Below are positions 57,324 through 64,000 of a stretch of 64,000 nucleotides of DNA, piece by piece (the first letter of the stretch is position 1; every line of letters starts with the position of its first letter). The stretch is from Escherichia coli (lineage in GTDB: Bacteria > Pseudomonadota > Gammaproteobacteria > Enterobacterales > Enterobacteriaceae), in NCBI RefSeq assembly GCF_024502345.1, contig NZ_JALDNN010000001.1, one strand, 5' to 3'. The position numbers and the translations under genes were made by a program. The notes beneath the pieces were generated by a model. It saw only the letters and a list, made by a program, of their open reading frames with translations, searched no databases and had not been told where the DNA came from.

Positions 57324-59012
57324 TTACAAATAGAGATAGTTCAGCGGTTCTCCTGTTTTCCCTAAAAGAAGAGCGCTACGCCCAGGAATATTGATATTTA
57401 GAGTTCCGCCTCTAAGCATAAATGCTTTACCAGGGGGGATAATTTTTCGGGTATTATTAATAATAATGTTAACGCTATTACTCCCCATGTTTTTATATTT
57501 TCCAGGTTGCAATTTGTTAGGCCAGGCACCTTCAACTTCTTCGTTTCCTTTATTTATTATAACTAGTCCATCATGAGGAGAGTGATTAATGTTCACCGAA
57601 TCCCCACGACTAAAGGCCAGAACGTTTTTAGTTGCAAATACACCCTCAAATGCGCTCCATATTCCTGCTTTATCTATATATAATGCGTGGAATTCATTGT
57701 AGAGCTGCTGATAGGTAGAGCAACCTTTATTAAGCCACGCCTCACCGCCGACACGCGTCGACCCATCATAATTTTTAATTTCAGTCGTTGATTTTAATAC
57801 TTGGCCATCCCAGTAAACTAAAGGCCTGCTGAACGGGAGAGCGGCCATATATGCCATTGCTAATTGTTCATCTTGTTGATGGTTAAATAGAAAGTCATTG
57901 AAAAGATTGCCATTGTTAGGAAAAACGTGGTTAATGTTAATCAATATCCGTCTTTTTGATGGGATGCTTGAGATTGTTGAACCCGGTTTTGATGCAAGGG
58001 TTTGGAGATCGCCACCAAATGAAAAAGCTTTTATCGTCTTCATGAGCAATGAAAAATCAATGGCGCTTAAATCATCTCTTTCATAAAGCAGCGATGACAT
58101 TTGTTGTTCATCCAACTGACAAGTTACCAGATATTCCATGTAATTCATAACGGCTTTTTCATGATATTTTGGGTTAAATAAGTTAGTATTGTGTAATCGC
58201 TCATTATAATTTTTAAGCGGTGGGGTTATTGATCTTTCTATTTGTTCATGTTTTGAGTGTTTTGCCGCATCATAACGTAAACCTCGTACGCCATATTTTC
58301 GCATTTCACGAACGTATTGATTTTGCAGCATAATAACCTGGTCACTTTTGGGGGTTGTTTTAGGCATTCCATTTAAACGCTTTTCTTTTAATGCATGGAG
58401 GTTTTCCCATTCATCCTTAGAAATATTATCTTTACTTGCTTCGAAGTCTTTTGCAGTGAGATGTATATCTTCTGGATGGATTTGTTTACGTTCTTTTGTT
58501 ACTGGATCTATAGTAAATGGAATCAAAACCTGACCTTGCCAATAGCCAGGGATACCACCTTCTATATCTTTACTGATCTTCGCTCGTATATCAGCAGAGG
58601 GATAATCCAGGTCATTTTTACCACTACCCCCGATTCCCATAAAGTTAAAGGTATAATCAGGAATGATATCGATACCAAATTTTTTAGCATCTTTAACCAA
58701 TGCGATAAAATCCTGCAAATCTCCCATTGGATTATGGATGGTACAAAGATCTTCGGGTTGATAAGCGTGAAACCAGTAACCTTTTTCTTCTTCGGGAGTT
58801 TCTGGTCCGTCGGCGCGGAAAGTTGTCACTGGAGGGATTTGTATATACCCATAATGGCAACGTGCAAACTCAGACATATTTTCCCTGATTTGCTGGTAGG
58901 TGGCATTAAAAGCATGAAGAATCGCTTCGCCAGGTTTTTTGGGGGTGATGATTTCACATTGTGATTTCTGAACAGCAGTAAGGGATTTACGCTCAAGTGT
59001 TTGCCGTAGATG
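57324..59012 (-). pseudogene. ygaQ: GH13 (alpha-amylase-like) protein YgaQ, 5-prime-truncated by IS3
   Basis: 517-aa ORF with alpha-amylase region II-like motif GLRYDAAKH; the frame stays open upstream of the first Met as far as the IS3 end at 59013; AT-rich. Confidence 0.7.
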
Positions 59013-59077
59013 TGATCTTACCCAGCAATAGTGGACACGCGGCTAAGTGAGTAAACTCTCAGTCAGAGGTGACTCAC

Positions 59078-59377
59078 ATGACAAAAACAGTATCAACCAG
59101 TAAAAAACCCCGTAAACAGCATTCGCCTGAATTTCGCAGTGAAGCCCTGAAGCTTGCTGAACGCATCGGTGTTACTGCCGCAGCCCGTGAACTCAGCCTG
59201 TATGAATCACAGCTCTACAACTGGCGCAGTAAACAGCAAAATCAGCAGACGTCTTCTGAACGTGAACTGGAGATGTCTACCGAGATTGCACGTCTCAAAC
59301 GCCAGCTGGCAGAACGGGATGAAGAGCTGGCTATCCTCCAAAAGGCCGCGACATACTTCGCGAAGCGCCTGAAATGA
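59078..59377 (+). CDS. insE: IS3 OrfA (InsE)
   Basis: [50 protein letters not shown]... Confidence 0.9.
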
Positions 59378-60240
59378 AGTATGTCTTTATTGAAAAACAT
59401 CAGGCTGAGTTCAGCATCAAAGCAATGTGCCGCGTGCTCCGGGTGGCCCGCAGCGGCTGGTATACGTGGTGTCAGCGGCGGACAAGGATAAGCACGCGTC
59501 AGCAGTTCCGCCAACACTGCGACAGCGTTGTCCTCGCGGCTTTTACCCGGTCAAAACAGCGTTACGGTGCCCCACGCCTGACGGATGAACTGCGTGCTCA
59601 GGGTTACCCCTTTAACGTAAAAACCGTGGCGGCAAGCCTGCGCCGTCAGGGACTGAGGGCAAAGGCCTCCCGGAAGTTCAGCCCGGTCAGCTACCGCGCA
59701 CACGGCCTGCCTGTGTCAGAAAATCTGTTGGAGCAGGATTTTTACGCCAGTGGCCCGAACCAGAAGTGGGCAGGAGACATCACGTACTTACGTACAGATG
59801 AAGGCTGGCTGTATCTGGCAGTGGTCATTGACCTGTGGTCACGTGCCGTTATTGGCTGGTCAATGTCGCCACGCATGACGGCGCAACTGGCCTGCGATGC
59901 CCTGCAGATGGCGCTGTGGCGGCGTAAGAGGCCCCGGAACGTTATCGTTCACACGGACCGTGGAGGCCAGTACTGTTCAGCAGATTATCAGGCGCAACTG
60001 AAGCGGCATAATCTGCGTGGAAGTATGAGCGCAAAAGGTTGCTGCTACGATAATGCCTGCGTGGAAAGCTTCTTTCATTCGCTGAAAGTGGAATGTATCC
60101 ATGGAGAACACTTTATCAGCCGGGAAATAATGCGGGCAACGGTGTTTAATTATATCGAATGTGATTACAATCGGTGGCGGCGGCACAGTTGGTGTGGCGG
60201 CCTCAGTCCGGAACAATTTGAAAACCAGAACCTCGCTTAG
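59374..60240 (+). CDS. insF: IS3 OrfB transposase (InsF; DDE)
   Basis: 288-aa ORF overlapping insE in the -1 frame. Confidence 0.9.
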
Positions 60241-60324
60241 GCCTGTGTCCATATTACGTGGGTAGGATCATAATGCTTTGGTTGCTGGCGTATCTGACAG
60301 CTTCTTCGGCGTGAAGGTCGTTGT

Positions 60325-61381
60325 GGCTTTGTTGAATAAATCAGATTTCGGGTAAGTCTCCCCCGTAGCGGGTTGTGTTTTCAGGCAATACGCACGCTTT
60401 CAGGCATACCTGCTTTCGTCATTTTGTTCAGCGCTCGTACCAGGGCCATAGCCTCTGCAACCTGACCATCGTAGTCACGCAGTGTCAGTGAACCCCCGAA
60501 CAGCTGTTTTACCCGGTACATCGCCGTTTCCGCTATCGAGCGACGGTTGTAATCTGTTGTCCATTTCCACCGCGCATTACTCCCGGTCATTCGCTGATTA
60601 GCCACTGCACGGTTACGGTCTGCATATTCACCGGGCCAGTAACCCGCACCTTTTCGGGGAGGGATAAGCGCGCTGATTTTCTTACGCCGCAGTTCATCGT
60701 GACATAGCCGGGTATCGTAAGCGCCATCGGCGGCGGCTGACCTGATTTTCCGGTGGGTTTGCCGGATTAACCCGGGGAAGGCCTCTGAGTCCGTAACGTT
60801 GTTCAGCGACAGGTCAGCGCAGATGATTTCATGTGTTTTACTGTCAACGGCGAGATGCAGCTTACGCCAGATACGGCGGCGTTCCTGGCCATGCTTTTTG
60901 ACTTTCCACTCGCCTTCACCGAAGACCTTCAGCCCGGTGGAATCAATTACCAGGTGTGCGATTTCACCCCGGGTGGGCGTTTTGAAACTGACATTAACCG
61001 ACTTTGCCCGCCTGCTGACACAGCTGTAATCCGGGCAGCGTAGCGGAACGTTCATCAGAGAAAAAATGGAATCAATAAAGCCCTGCGCAGCGCGCAGGGT
61101 CAGCCTGAATACGCGTTTAATGACCAGCACAGTCGTGATGGCAAGGTCAGAATAGCGCTGAGGTCTGCCTCGTGAAGAAGGTGTTGCTGACTCATACCAG
61201 GCCTGAATAGCTTCATCATCCAGCCAGAAAGTTATGGAGCCACGGTTGATGAGGGCTTTATTGTAGGTGGGCCAGTTGGTGATTTTGAACTTTTGCTTTG
61301 CCACGGAACGGTCTGCGTTGTCGGGAAGATACGTGATCTGATCCTTCAACTCAGCAAAAGTTCGATTTATTCAACAAAGCC
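60325..61381 (-). mobile_element. IS903-group (IS5 family) insertion sequence, copy 1 (1057 bp)
   Basis: Terminal inverted repeats GGCTTTGTTGAATAAATC at 60325-60342 and 61364-61381; internal 322-aa transposase ORF. Confidence 0.85.
60381..61349 (-). CDS. IS903-group transposase
   Basis: 322-aa ORF ending ...LVRALNKMTKAGMPESVRIA, recognised as IS903/IS102-type Tnp. Confidence 0.85.
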   Translation of the reverse strand: MKDQITYLPDNADRSVAKQKFKITNWPTYNKALINRGSITFWLDDEAIQAWYESATPSSRGRPQRYSDLAITTVLVIKRVFRLTLRAAQGFIDSIFSLMNVPLRCPDYSCVSRRAKSVNVSFKTPTRGEIAHLVIDSTGLKVFGEGEWKVKKHGQERRRIWRKLHLAVDSKTHEIICADLSLNNVTDSEAFPGLIRQTHRKIRSAAADGAYDTRLCHDELRRKKISALIPPRKGAGYWPGEYADRNRAVANQRMTGSNARWKWTTDYNRRSIAETAMYRVKQLFGGSLTLRDYDGQVAEAMALVRALNKMTKAGMPESVRIA

Positions 61382-61480
61382 TGTCCCCATTTGTAAATGG
61401 CTATGCTTAGTCCACATAGGTTAATGGTGTGATTATTAATTCTTTAACTAAATCAAGATAGTTAATGCATCATGGGAGAG

Positions 61481-61900
61481 TTATGCGGCAATAACTTTGC
61501 ATTTTTGAGACGAAACATAGTCACTCCACCATTGCATGAGAACCACCCGTTCAGTGAGATACTCTGCACGATTGTAGGCTGCAATTATTTCATCTTTCTT
61601 CGAGTGGGCAAGGGCGGCTTCTAAGACATCAGTCCTAAACTTGCCAGACTCCTCAGCAGCCGTTCTAGCAATGGATCGCATACCGTGAGCTACAAGCTCA
61701 CCTCCGAAACCCATACGGATTATGGCCGCATTAGCTGTTTGTTCATGCATGTGATTGAGTGGAGCTTTGATACTGGGGAACACCCACTCTCTATGCCCGC
61801 TGATGACTTTCATTAAATCCAAAACTCGCAAAGCTTCTTTGCTCAGTGGAACTTTGTGAGGCTTCTTCATTTTCATAAACTCCGCCGGGATGTTCCACAT
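61481..61900 (-). pseudogene. P4-type tyrosine integrase, C-terminal remnant A
   Basis: 139-aa ORF with catalytic-domain residues (...LVAHGMRSIARTAAEESG...EAALAHSKKDEIIAAYNRAEYLTERVVLMQWW); an in-frame stop two codons upstream of the Met shows N-terminal truncation. Confidence 0.7.
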
Positions 61901-62062
61901 GCCAGTTTCAATATCAATAGCCGCCTTTCGACGGTGTAGTGGGGAGAGTATTGCTTACAAACGTAATGAAATTGTTTGAGTAGCTAGGCTACTGCATAGG
62001 ATTATTTTGTTCTGTTAATATATCCGTTAATATAGATAGATTGATCCAATTGAGTTTAAGGA

Positions 62063-63772
62063 ATGAGTATGTTTCAGATATCAGCTGGAGTGTTCTTTGA
62101 TTTAGATAAAATAGAAAAACACGATGGCGCATTTGTTTTTTATTCAAATGTTGATGTGTCTTTCTCGGTGGAAAACACCTCCCCTCTTTTTAAAGCAAAT
62201 AAAATAAGTCATGATGGTATAAACTGTTATGTGGTAAACTATACTCTCCTGACCGAAAAACCAGAACGAATTGAAGCTGGAGTCGTAGTTAGGGCTGGTG
62301 ATGAGGATTATAGGCAACAATTTATTTTATTATGGGAATTCTATTTTGATTGTGTGGCTAGAGTAGAAAAAGAATCGGTTAAAAAAATATGTGCATTATC
62401 AAATTTTAATAAACATCACTCAAAAATTGCGCTTGAAGTTGCCCCATATTTAGTGGAGATTAACCGAAGAGTTTCATTTGATGATGTCTCTGGGTTTTCT
62501 GCTTTTATTAAAGATGTAGTGAATCTAAATAGATCTGCCTTTAAATCTTTAATGGCAGCGTTAAAAATAATTAGTGATTCAAAAGAATCATTGTCAACCA
62601 ACTTTGACCTGACTTATTCCATGTTAGTCTATGCCTTGGAGTCTTTGTCTCAAAGAAATGATAACTATAAGTCTGATTGGGATGACTACGATCAAAAAAC
62701 CAGAGGTGAATTAGAGTCTGTATTTGAGCATATGCCTGGTGAGGATGTTTGTAAAATTAAATCAATACTTATTGAAGGCAAACAATTCAGATTACAAAAA
62801 AGGTTCAAAGATTTTATACTGAAAAATCTTGAAGAAAATTATTTCAATGAAACAGAGAGATATCCAATCCGCTATAGCTTCCTTAGTAGAGCTTTAGATA
62901 ATTTATACAAAATCAGGTCTTCTTTTGTCCATGAGCTTAAGCCACTTGATGCAATGATCTCGAAAGCCTACAATCCTGTTGGTGATTGTCTGGTTCTTTT
63001 TGGCGAACCTCACTTCAGTTACTCTGGATTGCTTCGACTTCTTCGCCATGTGATAATAAATTTTTGCCGTAAAAACTACAGTCAAAAAAGAGAGTATGTT
63101 AATTGGGTGATGGAAACATCGGGTGTAATGGTTGCAGAGATATCTGCACAATATTGGCTCTGGAATGCAGACGGATTTACAGCTAAAAGTATAGCGAAGT
63201 GGTTTAGTGAATACCTAAATATGTTAAATTTAGGCGAAGTCACTGATTTGCAGTCTATCATGGACAAAATTGAGATAATCTATGACCAATCCAAAAAAGA
63301 ATATAAAAATGGGTTGTTGTATTTTTATTTCTTATATAACTTAATGCATAATGGAAATAAGGGTGAATGGCTTGAGTTTGCGAACAAGCGAAGTTCTATA
63401 CTTGTTTGTGATATATATTGGTATTCATGCTCTCCATATTTATATAAATCATTTACTAATGTTTCAAATGGTATTGCTGATATAAAAACATTGAGAAACT
63501 TTTTGTCTTGTTTTAACGAATATGATAAAAATAAATTTAAGCCAAATCGTTTAAATCTCCCTGCAATGACCGAAGTAATTATGTTGGCTTGCGCAGCAAA
63601 TTCATTCTTCAGAATTGGAATGTATCAAGACTATGTTTTAATGGGCAATAGAGCGATGAGAGAAATTGCTTCAGTAAAAGATGTATTTTATTATATAAAA
63701 GAACGATTAAGTAATTCACAACTTATTGAATTGGACGAGTGCTTGAGATTGTATAGAAAAAAAGGGGGCTAA
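62063..63772 (+). CDS. Hypothetical protein, 569 aa, AT-rich orphan
   Basis: Complete ORF; RBS AAGGA at 62058-62062 favours the second ATG at 62069; clearly A+T-rich relative to core genes; no family recognised; R-S-S-F-V-H at residues 285-290. Confidence 0.7.
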   Translation: MSMFQISAGVFFDLDKIEKHDGAFVFYSNVDVSFSVENTSPLFKANKISHDGINCYVVNYTLLTEKPERIEAGVVVRAGDEDYRQQFILLWEFYFDCVARVEKESVKKICALSNFNKHHSKIALEVAPYLVEINRRVSFDDVSGFSAFIKDVVNLNRSAFKSLMAALKIISDSKESLSTNFDLTYSMLVYALESLSQRNDNYKSDWDDYDQKTRGELESVFEHMPGEDVCKIKSILIEGKQFRLQKRFKDFILKNLEENYFNETERYPIRYSFLSRALDNLYKIRSSFVHELKPLDAMISKAYNPVGDCLVLFGEPHFSYSGLLRLLRHVIINFCRKNYSQKREYVNWVMETSGVMVAEISAQYWLWNADGFTAKSIAKWFSEYLNMLNLGEVTDLQSIMDKIEIIYDQSKKEYKNGLLYFYFLYNLMHNGNKGEWLEFANKRSSILVCDIYWYSCSPYLYKSFTNVSNGIADIKTLRNFLSCFNEYDKNKFKPNRLNLPAMTEVIMLACAANSFFRIGMYQDYVLMGNRAMREIASVKDVFYYIKERLSNSQLIELDECLRLYRKKGG

Positions 63773-63786
63773 CCCCTTTTATTTTT
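63757..63786. terminator. Bidirectional rho-independent terminator
   Basis: AAAAAAAGGGGG-CTAA-CCCCTTTTTATTTTT overlapping the convergent stop codons of the 569-aa ORF and integrase remnant B. Confidence 0.7.
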
Positions 63787-63932
63787 AACGTATTCTCCCC
63801 ACCAATCCATCAATTCAATTCGCTGCACGAGATAAGTAGAACGATTGTATGCTTTTCTAACTTCATTTTTATCACTGTGGGCTAAGGCAGACTCGATAAC
63901 ATCAGGATTTAATCCAGCTTCATTCATGGCTG
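63769..63932 (-). pseudogene. P4-type tyrosine integrase, C-terminal remnant B, truncated by IS903 copy 2
   Basis: Reverse-strand translation ...AMNEAGLNPDVIESALAHSDKNEVRKAYNRSTYLVQRIELMDWWGEYVKNKRG-stop; about 54 codons; related to but distinct from remnant A. Confidence 0.65.
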
Positions 63933-64000
63933 GGCTTTGTTGAATAAATCGAACTTTTGCTGAGTTGAAGGATCAGATCACGTATCTTCCCGACAACGCA
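63933..64000 (+). mobile_element. IS903-group insertion sequence, copy 2 (partial, runs off window), inverted relative to copy 1
   Basis: 63933-64000 is the exact reverse complement of 61314-61381 (the transposase-proximal end of copy 1). Confidence 0.85.

Follow-up and report, generated by a model that had tools for sequence, protein, structure and literature searches.

HEPN RNases that act as single proteins include the described systems closest to the one considered here. ApeA (Gao et al. 2020; Juozapaitis et al. 2026, 10.64898/2026.01.26.701840) is a single protein of about 570–590 aa with an Apea-type HEPN domain and is found on mobile elements of Enterobacterales, and its activity, oligomer and ligand have been demonstrated (10.64898/2026.01.26.701840). 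DARNA, also named PD-T7-3 (Puteikiene et al. 2026, 10.64898/2026.02.22.705581), has a HEPN RNase domain ahead of a large alpha-helical repeat domain that is not catalytic, and brings about abortive infection through tRNA cleavage upon sensing an infection cue (10.64898/2026.02.22.705581). Minimal HEPN RNases with solved structures, namely 4nqf, HepT (7ae2, 5yep, 8xdj), AbiV (9bj5) and Csm6 (8jbc), are stand-alone or differently fused, and several of them are under the control of partner antitoxins or cyclic oligoadenylates. The psu-int locus of P4 is a reservoir of defence systems, and system 38 of this hotspot, found at 42 loci and annotated as a single-gene system, is listed in Table S1A/S1B as 'HEPN_Apea, likely a RNAse' (Rousset et al. 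2022, PMC9122126).

We analysed a 64,000-nucleotide stretch of an Escherichia coli contig (NZ_JALDNN010000001.1; hereafter the window) and found that it carries the system 38 gene. The encoded protein is the same as WP_000486482.1, the system 38 protein of strain ATCC 8739, from which it is two residues apart (T21A, S343Y). However, the surroundings differ: the ATCC 8739 copy has its complete upstream region and belongs to an intact P4-like satellite, whereas the window has lost the satellite and carries an IS903 copy on either side of the cassette. WP_000486482.1 is also predicted, independently and by machine learning, to be a novel defence gene in Table S5 of DefensePredictor (2026), with a mean log-odds of 7.09 that exceeds the stringent cut-off of 4 used there, and it is missing from the table of cloned units in the same work. 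What is known from the supplementary tables of these two papers already includes the gene, its assignment to HEPN and its hotspot position. A preliminary description of the locus, made from the letters alone, had called the gene an undescribed orphan. Neither word holds, as the protein had been listed twice and clustering of its family at 50% identity leaves 485 representatives, spread from Proteobacteria to Firmicutes and Actinobacteria. The accession and the name 'HEPN-TPR', given to a clone of the ATCC 8739 allele, occur in no main text found by our literature search, and a newer P4/P2 hotspot preprint does not include the protein among its tested or named systems. From the analysis below, we put a probability of roughly 0.6 on the reading that the gene is cargo of the psu/cos-int hotspot and that its product is a self-contained HEPN ribonuclease with three domains, which would be triggered by phage and act via abortive infection.

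The gene and its immediate signals are as follows.

61916..62068, plus strand: AT-rich native upstream sequence of the hotspot cassette, of which 153 bp is retained; the megablast/blastn match begins at 61916
62058..62062, plus strand: Shine-Dalgarno-like AAGGA, read from the sequence, 6 nt 5' of the ATG at 62069
62069..63772, plus strand: coding sequence of the HEPN protein, 567 aa plus stop, placed by the ORF list, the RefSeq annotation and the N-termini of homologues
63760..63780, either strand: bidirectional intrinsic-terminator-like hairpin AAAAGGGGGCTAACCCCTTTT, found on both strands by the terminator scan

The ORF list of the window contains a complete, intact frame of 569 aa at 62063..63772 on the plus strand. 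The true start is likely the ATG at 62069, giving 567 aa, which is the length of the gene product in the RefSeq annotations of ATCC 8739 and NS-NP030 and agrees with the M-[FL]-Q-I start of homologues; the alternative in-frame ATG at 62063 would make the protein two residues longer and has zero spacing from the ribosome-binding site. GC content is 33.0% in the gene, where GC3 is 28.6%, and 51.5% across the window, and sliding-window values are 0.30–0.35 within it versus 0.55–0.61 in the upstream core genes. The hairpin overlaps the stop codon and is common to the HEPN gene and a convergent integrase remnant. These results agree with the preliminary description as to the 569-aa frame and its likely start 6 nt behind AAGGA, an A+T content above that of the flanking core genes, and a strong bidirectional hairpin terminator at the gene end. 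It had also given about 160 bp of AT-rich non-coding DNA 5' of the gene; this extent is correct when counted from 61901, but just 153 bp of it (61916–62068) is native to the gene.

[quoted passage not shown]

62069..62449, plus strand: N-terminal domain, aa 1–127, with four beta strands at residues 15–63 and then helices; AF2 model pLDDT 85.3
62450..63103, plus strand: central HEPN-fold domain, aa 128–345, with additional helices inserted between the core helices
62915..62932, plus strand: predicted catalytic motif R283-S-S-F-V-H288 (R285..H290 in the 569-aa numbering), placed by conservation
63104..63769, plus strand: C-terminal all-helical TPR-like repeat domain, aa 346–567, a candidate sensor

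In the predicted model the central domain is a HEPN fold. It forms the four-helix up-down bundle of the HEPN superfamily and matches HEPN structures, with HepT and the HEPN toxin 8xdj among the closest, and it contains the R-x4-6-H signature of the superfamily. R283-SSFV-H288 was invariant in an alignment of 28 sequences. Among 174 full-length representatives, R283 (99%), S284 (100%), H288 (99%) and Y280 (100%) were conserved, together with E191, R155 and W204 (each at least 99%) and Y183 (98%), at a HEPN-domain identity of about 34%. The Rx4H motif that had earlier been offered tentatively as a HEPN-type site is thus upheld by both the alignments and the model. It could be argued that the domain is instead a non-catalytic HEPN-like helical bundle in a protein that binds or scaffolds and is not a nuclease, as many HEPN domains are non-catalytic and the structural matches also include sacsin and the HEPN domains of nucleotidyltransferase pairs. 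However, the 98–100% conservation of R283, H288 and six more residues at about 34% domain identity is a pattern typical of an active site and therefore counts against such a bundle, which we regard as very improbable. That the protein is a HEPN RNase appears highly probable. Within the N-terminal domain, which is possibly a regulatory or sensor module, M1, Q3, G7, F9 and N27 are conserved, and the C-terminal domain is the most divergent region of the protein. Searches of Pfam, NCBIfam and PHROGs with the full protein returned no match, and no sequence-related solved structure was found in the PDB with either the single protein or the 28-sequence profile.

The protein or its family bears the label HEPN_Apea in the table of Rousset et al. 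and in UniRef. Taken literally, the label would make it an ordinary ApeA family member, that is, an enzyme that cuts tRNA anticodon loops, assembles into a doughnut-shaped oligomer and is switched on by deoxydinucleotides. This assignment is also favoured by a-L-E-s-L and R-x4-H motifs in common with ApeA sequences, and by a partial 'Cas13-ApeA' match (E 7e-6) in the PADLOC search of the full protein, which gave only weak matches, up to three. However, Ec2ApeA matches the PADLOC model PDLC02157 at E 2e-12, whereas our protein does not match it at E ≤ 1. The domain order differs as well: in ApeA the HEPN domain (residues 335–583; R502/R521, with the catalytic Arg, R502, near residue 500–520) is C-terminal, behind alpha-helical N-terminal and Mid domains, whereas here the HEPN domain, with R283, lies in the middle, between a beta-rich N-terminus and a TPR-like domain. 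A profile–profile comparison with 115 ApeA homologues gave a probability of 3.7% with the catalytic motifs out of register; an hhalign control, 318-aa HEPN_Apea proteins against canonical ApeA, was negative too and indicates low sensitivity within the Apea clade, so that the comparison rules out full-length ApeA membership only. Canonical ApeA identity is largely refuted by the PDLC02157 result, the domain order and the profile comparison together, and we consider ordinary membership of that family a highly improbable reading.

A kinship with the 318-aa HEPN_Apea proteins of the same hotspot (Rousset system 24, for example WP_001276440) is plausible but not secure. The N-terminal region and the HEPN motifs of these proteins align with those of our protein; they differ from it in having no C-terminal TPR-like domain and, in the hhalign alignment, in missing part of the helical stretch between the HEPN core helices. 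Aligned with hhalign, the two families gave E 1.3e-3 over 263 columns with a probability of only 18%, and a single-sequence comparison with one HEPN_Apea protein was uninformative. The query had no match to Pfam HEPN_Apea (PF18739) even at E ≤ 10, and weak matches were obtained for 3 of its 28 relatives (E 0.02–0.1). Several sources call the 318-aa hotspot proteins 'Apea-like HEPN'. The resemblance to DARNA is architectural only. DARNA, at 456 aa, begins directly with its HEPN domain (R117/H122) and has no beta-rich leader, and no homology to it was detected, our query matching no PADLOC model beyond the weak ones mentioned above. The minimal HEPN RNases share 4–17% identity with the protein, and none of them has its flanking domains.

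To place the gene in its genomic context, the flanking features are given next.

60325..61381, minus strand: complete IS903 copy, 1057 bp, with transposase ORF 60381..61349 and terminal inverted repeats at 60325–60357 and 61349–61381
61382..61919, minus strand: 3' part of a different ssrA-island integrase plus downstream DNA, with remnant ORF 61481..61900; 100% match to the 3' portion of WP_001062342.1
63769..63932, minus strand: 3' end of the P4-like satellite integrase, with a 52-aa remnant ORF at 63769..63927, interrupted by IS903
63933..64000, no strand assigned: beginning of another IS903 copy, in the opposite orientation to the one at 60325..61381; the window ends within it

In ATCC 8739, NS-NP030 and Pectobacterium the gene occupies the psu/cos-int hotspot of an intact P4-like satellite, whose integration site is ssrA (tmRNA). 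In the window the whole satellite from alpha to psu has been deleted, together with most of the integrase, and what survives between the two IS903 copies is the cassette and 164 bp of the satellite integrase. Deletions and IS903 activity have probably stripped the remainder of the satellite from this locus. On the right, the integrase remnant is collinear with the full-length WP_000124719.1 of ATCC 8739 (L001) and NS-NP030 (L002) up to 63932, and it is convergent with the HEPN gene, with a 4-nt overlap. On the left, the window lacks the cos region and, relative to ATCC 8739, the initial 136 bp of the cassette; P4 backbone similarity stops at L001:14864, 26 bp beyond cos, and the window resumes at L001:15001. 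This left junction was considered as the hotspot boundary and rejected, as it falls 136 bp inside the cassette. There, the unrelated integrase fragment meets the cassette through a 4-bp overlap of the two match ranges (61916–61919). The WP_001062342.1 integrase adjoins ssrA in strain LR-64-1, and the segment of this type is present in 697 genomes. The 68-nt arm of the second IS903 copy is 100% complementary to 61314–61381. With regard to composite-transposon status of the IS903 pair, the window covers just 68 bp of the second copy. The same IS903/cassette arrangement was absent from all complete E. coli genomes in our collection. The preliminary description had proposed a solitary cargo gene of a degraded integrase-type island, with two integrase 3' remnants and an inverted pair of IS903 copies around it; both points stand, and the island is the psu/cos-int cassette of a P4-like satellite at ssrA.

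The gene-bearing segment was found in 19 of 5,426 complete E. coli genomes, and the gene is therefore accessory, not core. Two of the 19 carriers have a disrupted copy, one split by IS1 and one truncated. The window copy may not be expressed, as it has lost cos-proximal DNA along with 136 bp at the 5' end of the cassette, and no plus-strand consensus promoter was found. The gene could thus be a silent relic in the source genome, left by a destroyed satellite with its upstream region truncated and with mutations in the ORF yet to accumulate. The deletion from alpha to psu and through most of the integrase fits this picture, as do the IS elements on both sides of the segment, the IS1 disruption or truncation in other carriers, and the native upstream DNA of just 153 bp, in which the promoter scan (61916..62068) found no plus-strand promoter-like consensus site. 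However, the ORF is intact and is only one or two residues from functional-looking alleles (T21A and S343Y relative to ATCC 8739, T21A relative to NS-NP030), with the conserved residues unaltered. In addition, the ribosome-binding site and terminator are kept, non-consensus promoters are often present in AT-rich upstream DNA, and read-through from the integrase fragment or IS903 is possible. On balance we think it rather unlikely that the gene is a silent relic.

Whether homologues sit in defence islands near mobile elements had been posed as a check, and distant homologues were indeed located in defence islands, prophages, satellites and plasmids. A Vibrio homologue adjoins Gabija-like genes, one in Aeromonas adjoins SIR2 plus DUF87/HerA, one in a Lacrimispora prophage is positioned between terminase and portal, and further ones are carried by plasmids from several phyla; no close relative of the gene was found by tblastn in the plasmid collection. 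The intact cassette contained no partner ORF of at least 25 aa, no tandem repeats or RNA repeat array, and no match to an Rfam family. The locus thus has neither the adjacent antitoxin gene nor the tandem RNA repeats of toxin–antitoxin pairs (HepT-MNT, ToxIN/AbiF-like).

Experimental information comes from pFR83 'HEPN-TPR', a clone in which the ATCC 8739 allele is under its native promoter and which could be maintained in MG1655 (Rousset et al. 2022, PMC9122126). The clone was tested on eight coliphages, and it was among the P4-encoded systems challenged with P2 and four P2-like phages, where TIR-NLR alone restricted the P2-like phages (Rousset et al. 2022, PMC9122126). It is given only in Table S2B, 'additional tested systems', outside the seven validated ones (Rousset et al. 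2022, PMC9122126), and neither another test nor a positive phenotype for the protein was found in the literature searched. The lack of a defence phenotype, which the preliminary description had named as evidence against its own reading, has in this way been addressed in part, with a small panel and without a validated result.

The absence of validated protection on a standard phage panel would also be expected of an RNase toxin that serves the satellite and not host immunity, through addiction or stabilisation, or through interference with the helper phage, rival satellites or plasmids. HEPN toxins are common in toxin–antitoxin addiction modules, HepT and 8xdj are among the closest structural matches, and carriage on satellites, prophages and plasmids would suit such a role. 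However, the gene has no antitoxin-like partner ORF or RNA repeat array, the clone alone was tolerated in MG1655, and restriction of P2-like phages was confined to TIR-NLR (Rousset et al. 2022, PMC9122126). In addition, the gene is still present in the window although the satellite has gone, a persistence not required by an addiction function. We judge a toxin in the service of the satellite to be improbable, whereas an anti-phage role of the protein is probable.

The RNase activity, dimerisation, trigger and target of the protein are what we infer, and the following scheme is proposed for the phage-triggered HEPN ribonuclease. From the biology of HepT, Csm6, ApeA and DARNA, the HEPN domains of two protomers would pair to form a composite, metal-independent RNase site and, as in established HEPN biology, the protein's own flanking domains would hold the enzyme off in healthy cells. 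Tolerance of the clone in MG1655 under the native promoter fits an enzyme that is off until triggered. A phage cue, which could be a phage-derived protein, peptide or nucleic acid, would be sensed by the TPR-like solenoid at the C-terminus, which evolves fast, and possibly by the beta-rich N-terminal domain as well. Once activated, the enzyme would cut tRNA, or else mRNA or rRNA, and this cleavage would halt translation and abort the infection. tRNA as the specific target is a doubtful proposition. The outcome would be that the satellite-carrying clone is protected from phages other than the helper.

For the family as a whole, we tentatively entertain functional single-protein HEPN immunity, in which two modules, a beta-rich N-terminal domain and a TPR-like sensor that evolves fast, gate a central Apea-like HEPN RNase, with a trigger outside the 2022 panel. 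Candidate triggers would be a protein of phage groups beyond that panel, RNA phages or rival satellites. If this is true, the family would be a distinct, widespread system with its own activation logic. The discovery value of the present analysis is small, and the locus provides a clear example of a hotspot cassette that has outlived its satellite. If active, the family would add another architecture to the single-protein HEPN RNases beside ApeA, DARNA and the DS systems. For these proteins the question is now how infection is sensed rather than what the effector is, and the fusion of an Apea-type HEPN domain with a TPR-like sensor would, if active, offer a tractable case in which to study sensing.

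The window contains a complete ORF of 569 aa, as a preliminary description made from the sequence alone had claimed, and its second ATG, at 62069, is likely to be the true start. This start, also proposed there, is supported by its spacing from an AAGGA element, by the 567-aa products that RefSeq annotates in two related genomes, and by the M-[FL]-Q-I N-terminus of homologues across the family. Residues are therefore numbered on the 567-aa form. The claims of A+T-richness and of a strong terminator held as well: the GC content of the gene is 33.0% (28.6% at third codon positions) against 51.5% for the entire window and 55-61% in the upstream core genes, and a hairpin overlapping the stop codon is scored on either strand as an intrinsic terminator. 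The features of the gene are as follows.

62063..63772, + strand: complete ORF, 569 aa (ORF list)
62058-62062: AAGGA, six bases 5' of the ATG at 62069
62915-62932: R-S-S-F-V-H motif within the gene
63760-63780, both strands: hairpin AAAAGGGGGCTAACCCCTTTT

The full-length protein had zero matches in Pfam, NCBIfam and PHROGs, and no PDB relatives were found by sequence or by profile. It is not the orphan it had been taken for: we found 485 matches among 50%-identity cluster representatives (390 at E <= 1e-10), mostly of 555-575 aa. A 90%-clustered collection gave 70 matches; one of these is a cluster with 344 E. coli sequences, and others come from Enterobacter, Pantoea, Klebsiella, Pectobacterium, Vibrio, Photobacterium, Aeromonas, Ferrimonas and Lacrimispora. 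Among 174 aligned full-length representatives, conservation is highest at W204, Y280 and S284 (100%), followed by R155, E191, R283 and H288 (99%) and Y183 (98%). This conservation indicates that the Rx4H motif is part of an N-x-Y-x-x-R-S-x-x-x-H signature which, at the level of the alignment, is essentially invariant. The whole-protein AlphaFold2 model (pLDDT 85.3) has three parts.

Strands at residues 15-63: beta-rich N-terminal part
Middle of the protein: helical part
Residues 372-564: C-terminal helix stack

In this model the central domain is predicted to adopt a HEPN fold with the invariant predicted catalytic motif; fold and signature together show that the HEPN reading first offered tentatively for Rx4H was correct. 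The HEPN domain averages 34.3% pairwise identity and the N-terminal domain 29.9%, while the C-terminal domain, at 22.5%, is the least conserved. These results establish that the gene is intact and that its product combines a HEPN fold, bearing a conserved catalytic signature, with a divergent C-terminal solenoid.

A search of PADLOC returned one weak match, to the model 'Cas13-ApeA' (E 7e-6, residues 150-275). This model (PDLC01679, 187 positions) is the sole defence-database match for the family, and at E <= 0.01 it is matched by neither canonical Ec2ApeA nor the proteins of a source-labelled 318-aa HEPN_Apea family. ApeA is a HEPN defence system (Gao et al. 2020; Juozapaitis et al. 2026, bioRxiv 10.64898/2026.01.26.701840) in which a helical N-terminal domain and a Mid domain are followed by a split HEPN domain at the C-terminus (Ec2ApeA residues 335-583, with catalytic R502; R521 in Ec1ApeA). 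Its ring-shaped decamers or dodecamers cut tRNA anticodon loops upon deoxydinucleotide binding. Using Ec2ApeA (P0333, 583 aa) and 115 homologues for comparison, we rejected the ApeA system proper, as three tests part the two families. First, the PADLOC ApeA model PDLC02157 matches Ec2ApeA at E 2e-12, whereas the window protein gave no match at E <= 1. Second, profile-profile comparison of the families gave a probability of 3.7% and did not bring the catalytic motifs into register. Third, the HEPN domain is C-terminal in ApeA but central in the window protein.

A wider relationship finds some support. Pfam HEPN_Apea is touched by 3 of 28 relatives (E 0.02-0.1), and UniRef labels one homologue 'Apea-like HEPN'. 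An hhalign comparison with the 318-aa HEPN_Apea family gave E 1.3e-3 over 263 columns, with a probability of only 18%, and 'aLESL' and 'Y-x-x-RS-x-x-x-H' in register. Membership of the Apea branch of the HEPN superfamily is therefore plausible but not established. In DARNA/PD-T7-3 (Puteikiene et al. 2026, bioRxiv 10.64898/2026.02.22.705581), as in the window protein, a HEPN domain is followed by a large helical repeat domain; however, the HEPN domain of DARNA/PD-T7-3 is N-terminal, and no homology between the two was detected. The best description of the protein is that of a separate three-domain HEPN family that may belong to the Apea branch.

The origin of the gene was revealed by related genomes. 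The segment occurs in 19 of 5426 complete E. coli genomes, always chromosomal and at >=99% identity (megablast), with the match beginning at window position 61916. Two of the 19 carriers (NZ_CP144926.1 H13 and NZ_AP018395.1 H19) have a damaged gene copy, one with an IS1A insertion and the other reduced to the final 604 bp of the query. In strains ATCC 8739 and NS-NP030 the gene, annotated 'hypothetical protein', lies within a P4-like satellite integrated at ssrA; after the satellite's primase-helicase alpha, epsilon/derepression, Icd-like, sid-like, delta and psu genes comes the HEPN gene, and it is followed by a convergent integrase (4-nt overlap) and ssrA. The ATCC 8739 backbone, including cos GGCGAGGCGGGGAAAGCAC, is 98.8% identical to phage P4 (14675-14864 of the ATCC 8739 locus, L001, against the P4 locus, L014), and this similarity stops abruptly 26 bp past cos (L001:14864), identifying the HEPN gene as cargo of the variable psu/cos-int slot. 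At the DNA level the satellite integrase does not resemble P4 int, which fits its different attachment site (ssrA). In Pectobacterium brasiliense, a homologue with 69% identity is found in this slot too, ahead of a related satellite's integrase and beside smpB.

The window retains only L001:15001-17017, as window 61916-63932. Missing are the cassette's initial 136 bp, cos and the entire satellite from psu back to alpha, and of the satellite integrase only the last 164 bp are present, where an IS903 interrupts it. The window copy is the remnant of a decayed P4-like satellite. The two integrase 3' remnants and two inverted IS903 copies reported to flank the gene were found.

60325-61381: complete IS903, 1057 bp
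61481..61900, - strand: integrase 3' remnant ORF (ORF list)
63769..63927, - strand: integrase 3' remnant ORF (ORF list)
From 63933 (63933-64000 inside the window): second IS903 copy, inverted relative to the first, with 68-nt arms 100% complementary

The IS903 pair, whose second copy is seen for its first 68 bp, has an apparent Tn903-like composite-transposon geometry, and it encloses a 2551-bp segment with the HEPN gene and both integrase fragments. On the left, a 4-bp overlap (61916-61919) links the cassette to the 3' part of another ssrA-island integrase; this fragment is 100% identical to that of strain LR-64-1 and is carried by 697 genomes. The junction sits 136 bp within the cassette, not on the hotspot boundary, and looks like an illegitimate (microhomology) deletion that took out the satellite from alpha to psu. 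None of the complete genomes in the collection shares this arrangement. Further left, an AT-rich 517-aa ORF (57324-58877, - strand; 35-41% GC) partially matches, at 57819-58432, an NS-NP030 gene annotated as an incomplete alpha-amylase C-terminal-domain protein. Next comes an IS3 copy (59013-60270), which abuts IS903. The window is without the IS3-side cargo of NS-NP030 (an ATP-binding protein and a response-regulator-receiver protein) and of LR-64-1 (ParB-like proteins and a recombinase).

The gene had been proposed to act alone. In the intact cassette, the cos-to-gene interval has no other ORF of at least 25 aa as a possible partner, and the cassette has no tandem repeats and no Rfam match; a published catalogue of the P4 hotspot likewise lists a single protein. 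This solitude speaks against a toxin-antitoxin pair of the classical kind and against a ToxIN/AbiF-type arrangement. Elsewhere, the Vibrio navarrensis homologue adjoins Gabija-like genes (an AAA_15/OLD-TOPRIM protein and a UvrD helicase) with transposases around; in that locus (L007 3131-7492) the GajA-like gene is apparently split by an IS (rve transposase) between its AAA_15 and OLD-TOPRIM parts. The Aeromonas media homologue lies in an integrase island next to SIR2 and DUF87/HerA, and that of Klebsiella neighbours a resolvase, a UmuD-like gene and a SRAP gene. A full-length homologue, 23-29% identical, occupies a moron-like position inside the head-morphogenesis module of a Lacrimispora sp. 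prophage (L008 8001-9701), between large terminase and portal. Relatives found by tblastn lie on plasmids of Bacillus thuringiensis, Paenibacillus, Acinetobacter, Ralstonia, Bradyrhizobium and Nocardia; the neighbourhood of one metagenomic copy was uninformative. Overall this is a pattern of mobile-element and defence-island cargo, with a solitary gene in hotspot, defence-island or mobile-element context in several phyla.

Previous work shows that the gene is not undescribed, as had been supposed. The P4 psu-int locus was established as a defence hotspot by Rousset et al. 2022 (PMC9122126), who list NC_010468 / WP_000486482 (the ATCC 8739 allele) and WP_088551761 as single-gene loci (Table S1A) and enter the protein under system 38 with 42 loci, as 'HEPN_Apea' and 'Likely a RNAse' (Table S1B). 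The ATCC 8739 gene, together with its native upstream region, was cloned as 'HEPN-TPR' (plasmid pFR83, Table S2B). Cloned P4 systems were challenged in MG1655 with eight coliphages, lambda, T4, P1, 186cIts, CLB_P2, LF82_P8, AL505_P2 and T7, and seven gave robust resistance; Table S2A holds validated systems and S2B 'additional tested systems'. When P4-encoded systems of both tables were challenged in E. coli C with P2 and four P2-like phages, TIR-NLR alone was protective. The authors considered activity probably underestimated with a small panel, and one PARIS homologue was active only upon inducible expression. DefensePredictor (PMC13092281), whose E. coli set of 69 strains, mainly ECOR, includes a genome encoding WP_000486482.1, gave this protein a mean log-odds of 7.09 (stringent cut-off 4) and listed it as a 'Predicted novel defense gene'; it is not in the table of cloned units. 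None of six further named systems in a 2026 P4/P2 hotspot preprint matches, the sequence is not in its supplements, and neither the accession nor the name 'HEPN-TPR' appears in any searchable main text. The gene is thus a known, catalogued, once-tested, still unvalidated defence candidate.

Together, these data indicate that the protein is a HEPN RNase, with a probability of about 0.85, and an anti-phage function is somewhat favoured. By extension from characterised HEPN proteins, HEPN domains would dimerise into a composite RNase site, with the enzyme autoinhibited by the flanking domains. Activation would come from a phage-derived cue that the TPR-like domain senses, perhaps along with the N-terminal domain, and RNA cleavage would halt translation and abort the infection. 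The cleaved RNA is most often tRNA in recent examples, and by this analogy tRNA may be the target here, although we regard this as rather doubtful. The main counter-evidence is the one published test without a validated phenotype. For the window copy in particular, it also counts against a function that the native upstream region is partly lost and that no promoter is recognisable upstream of the gene.
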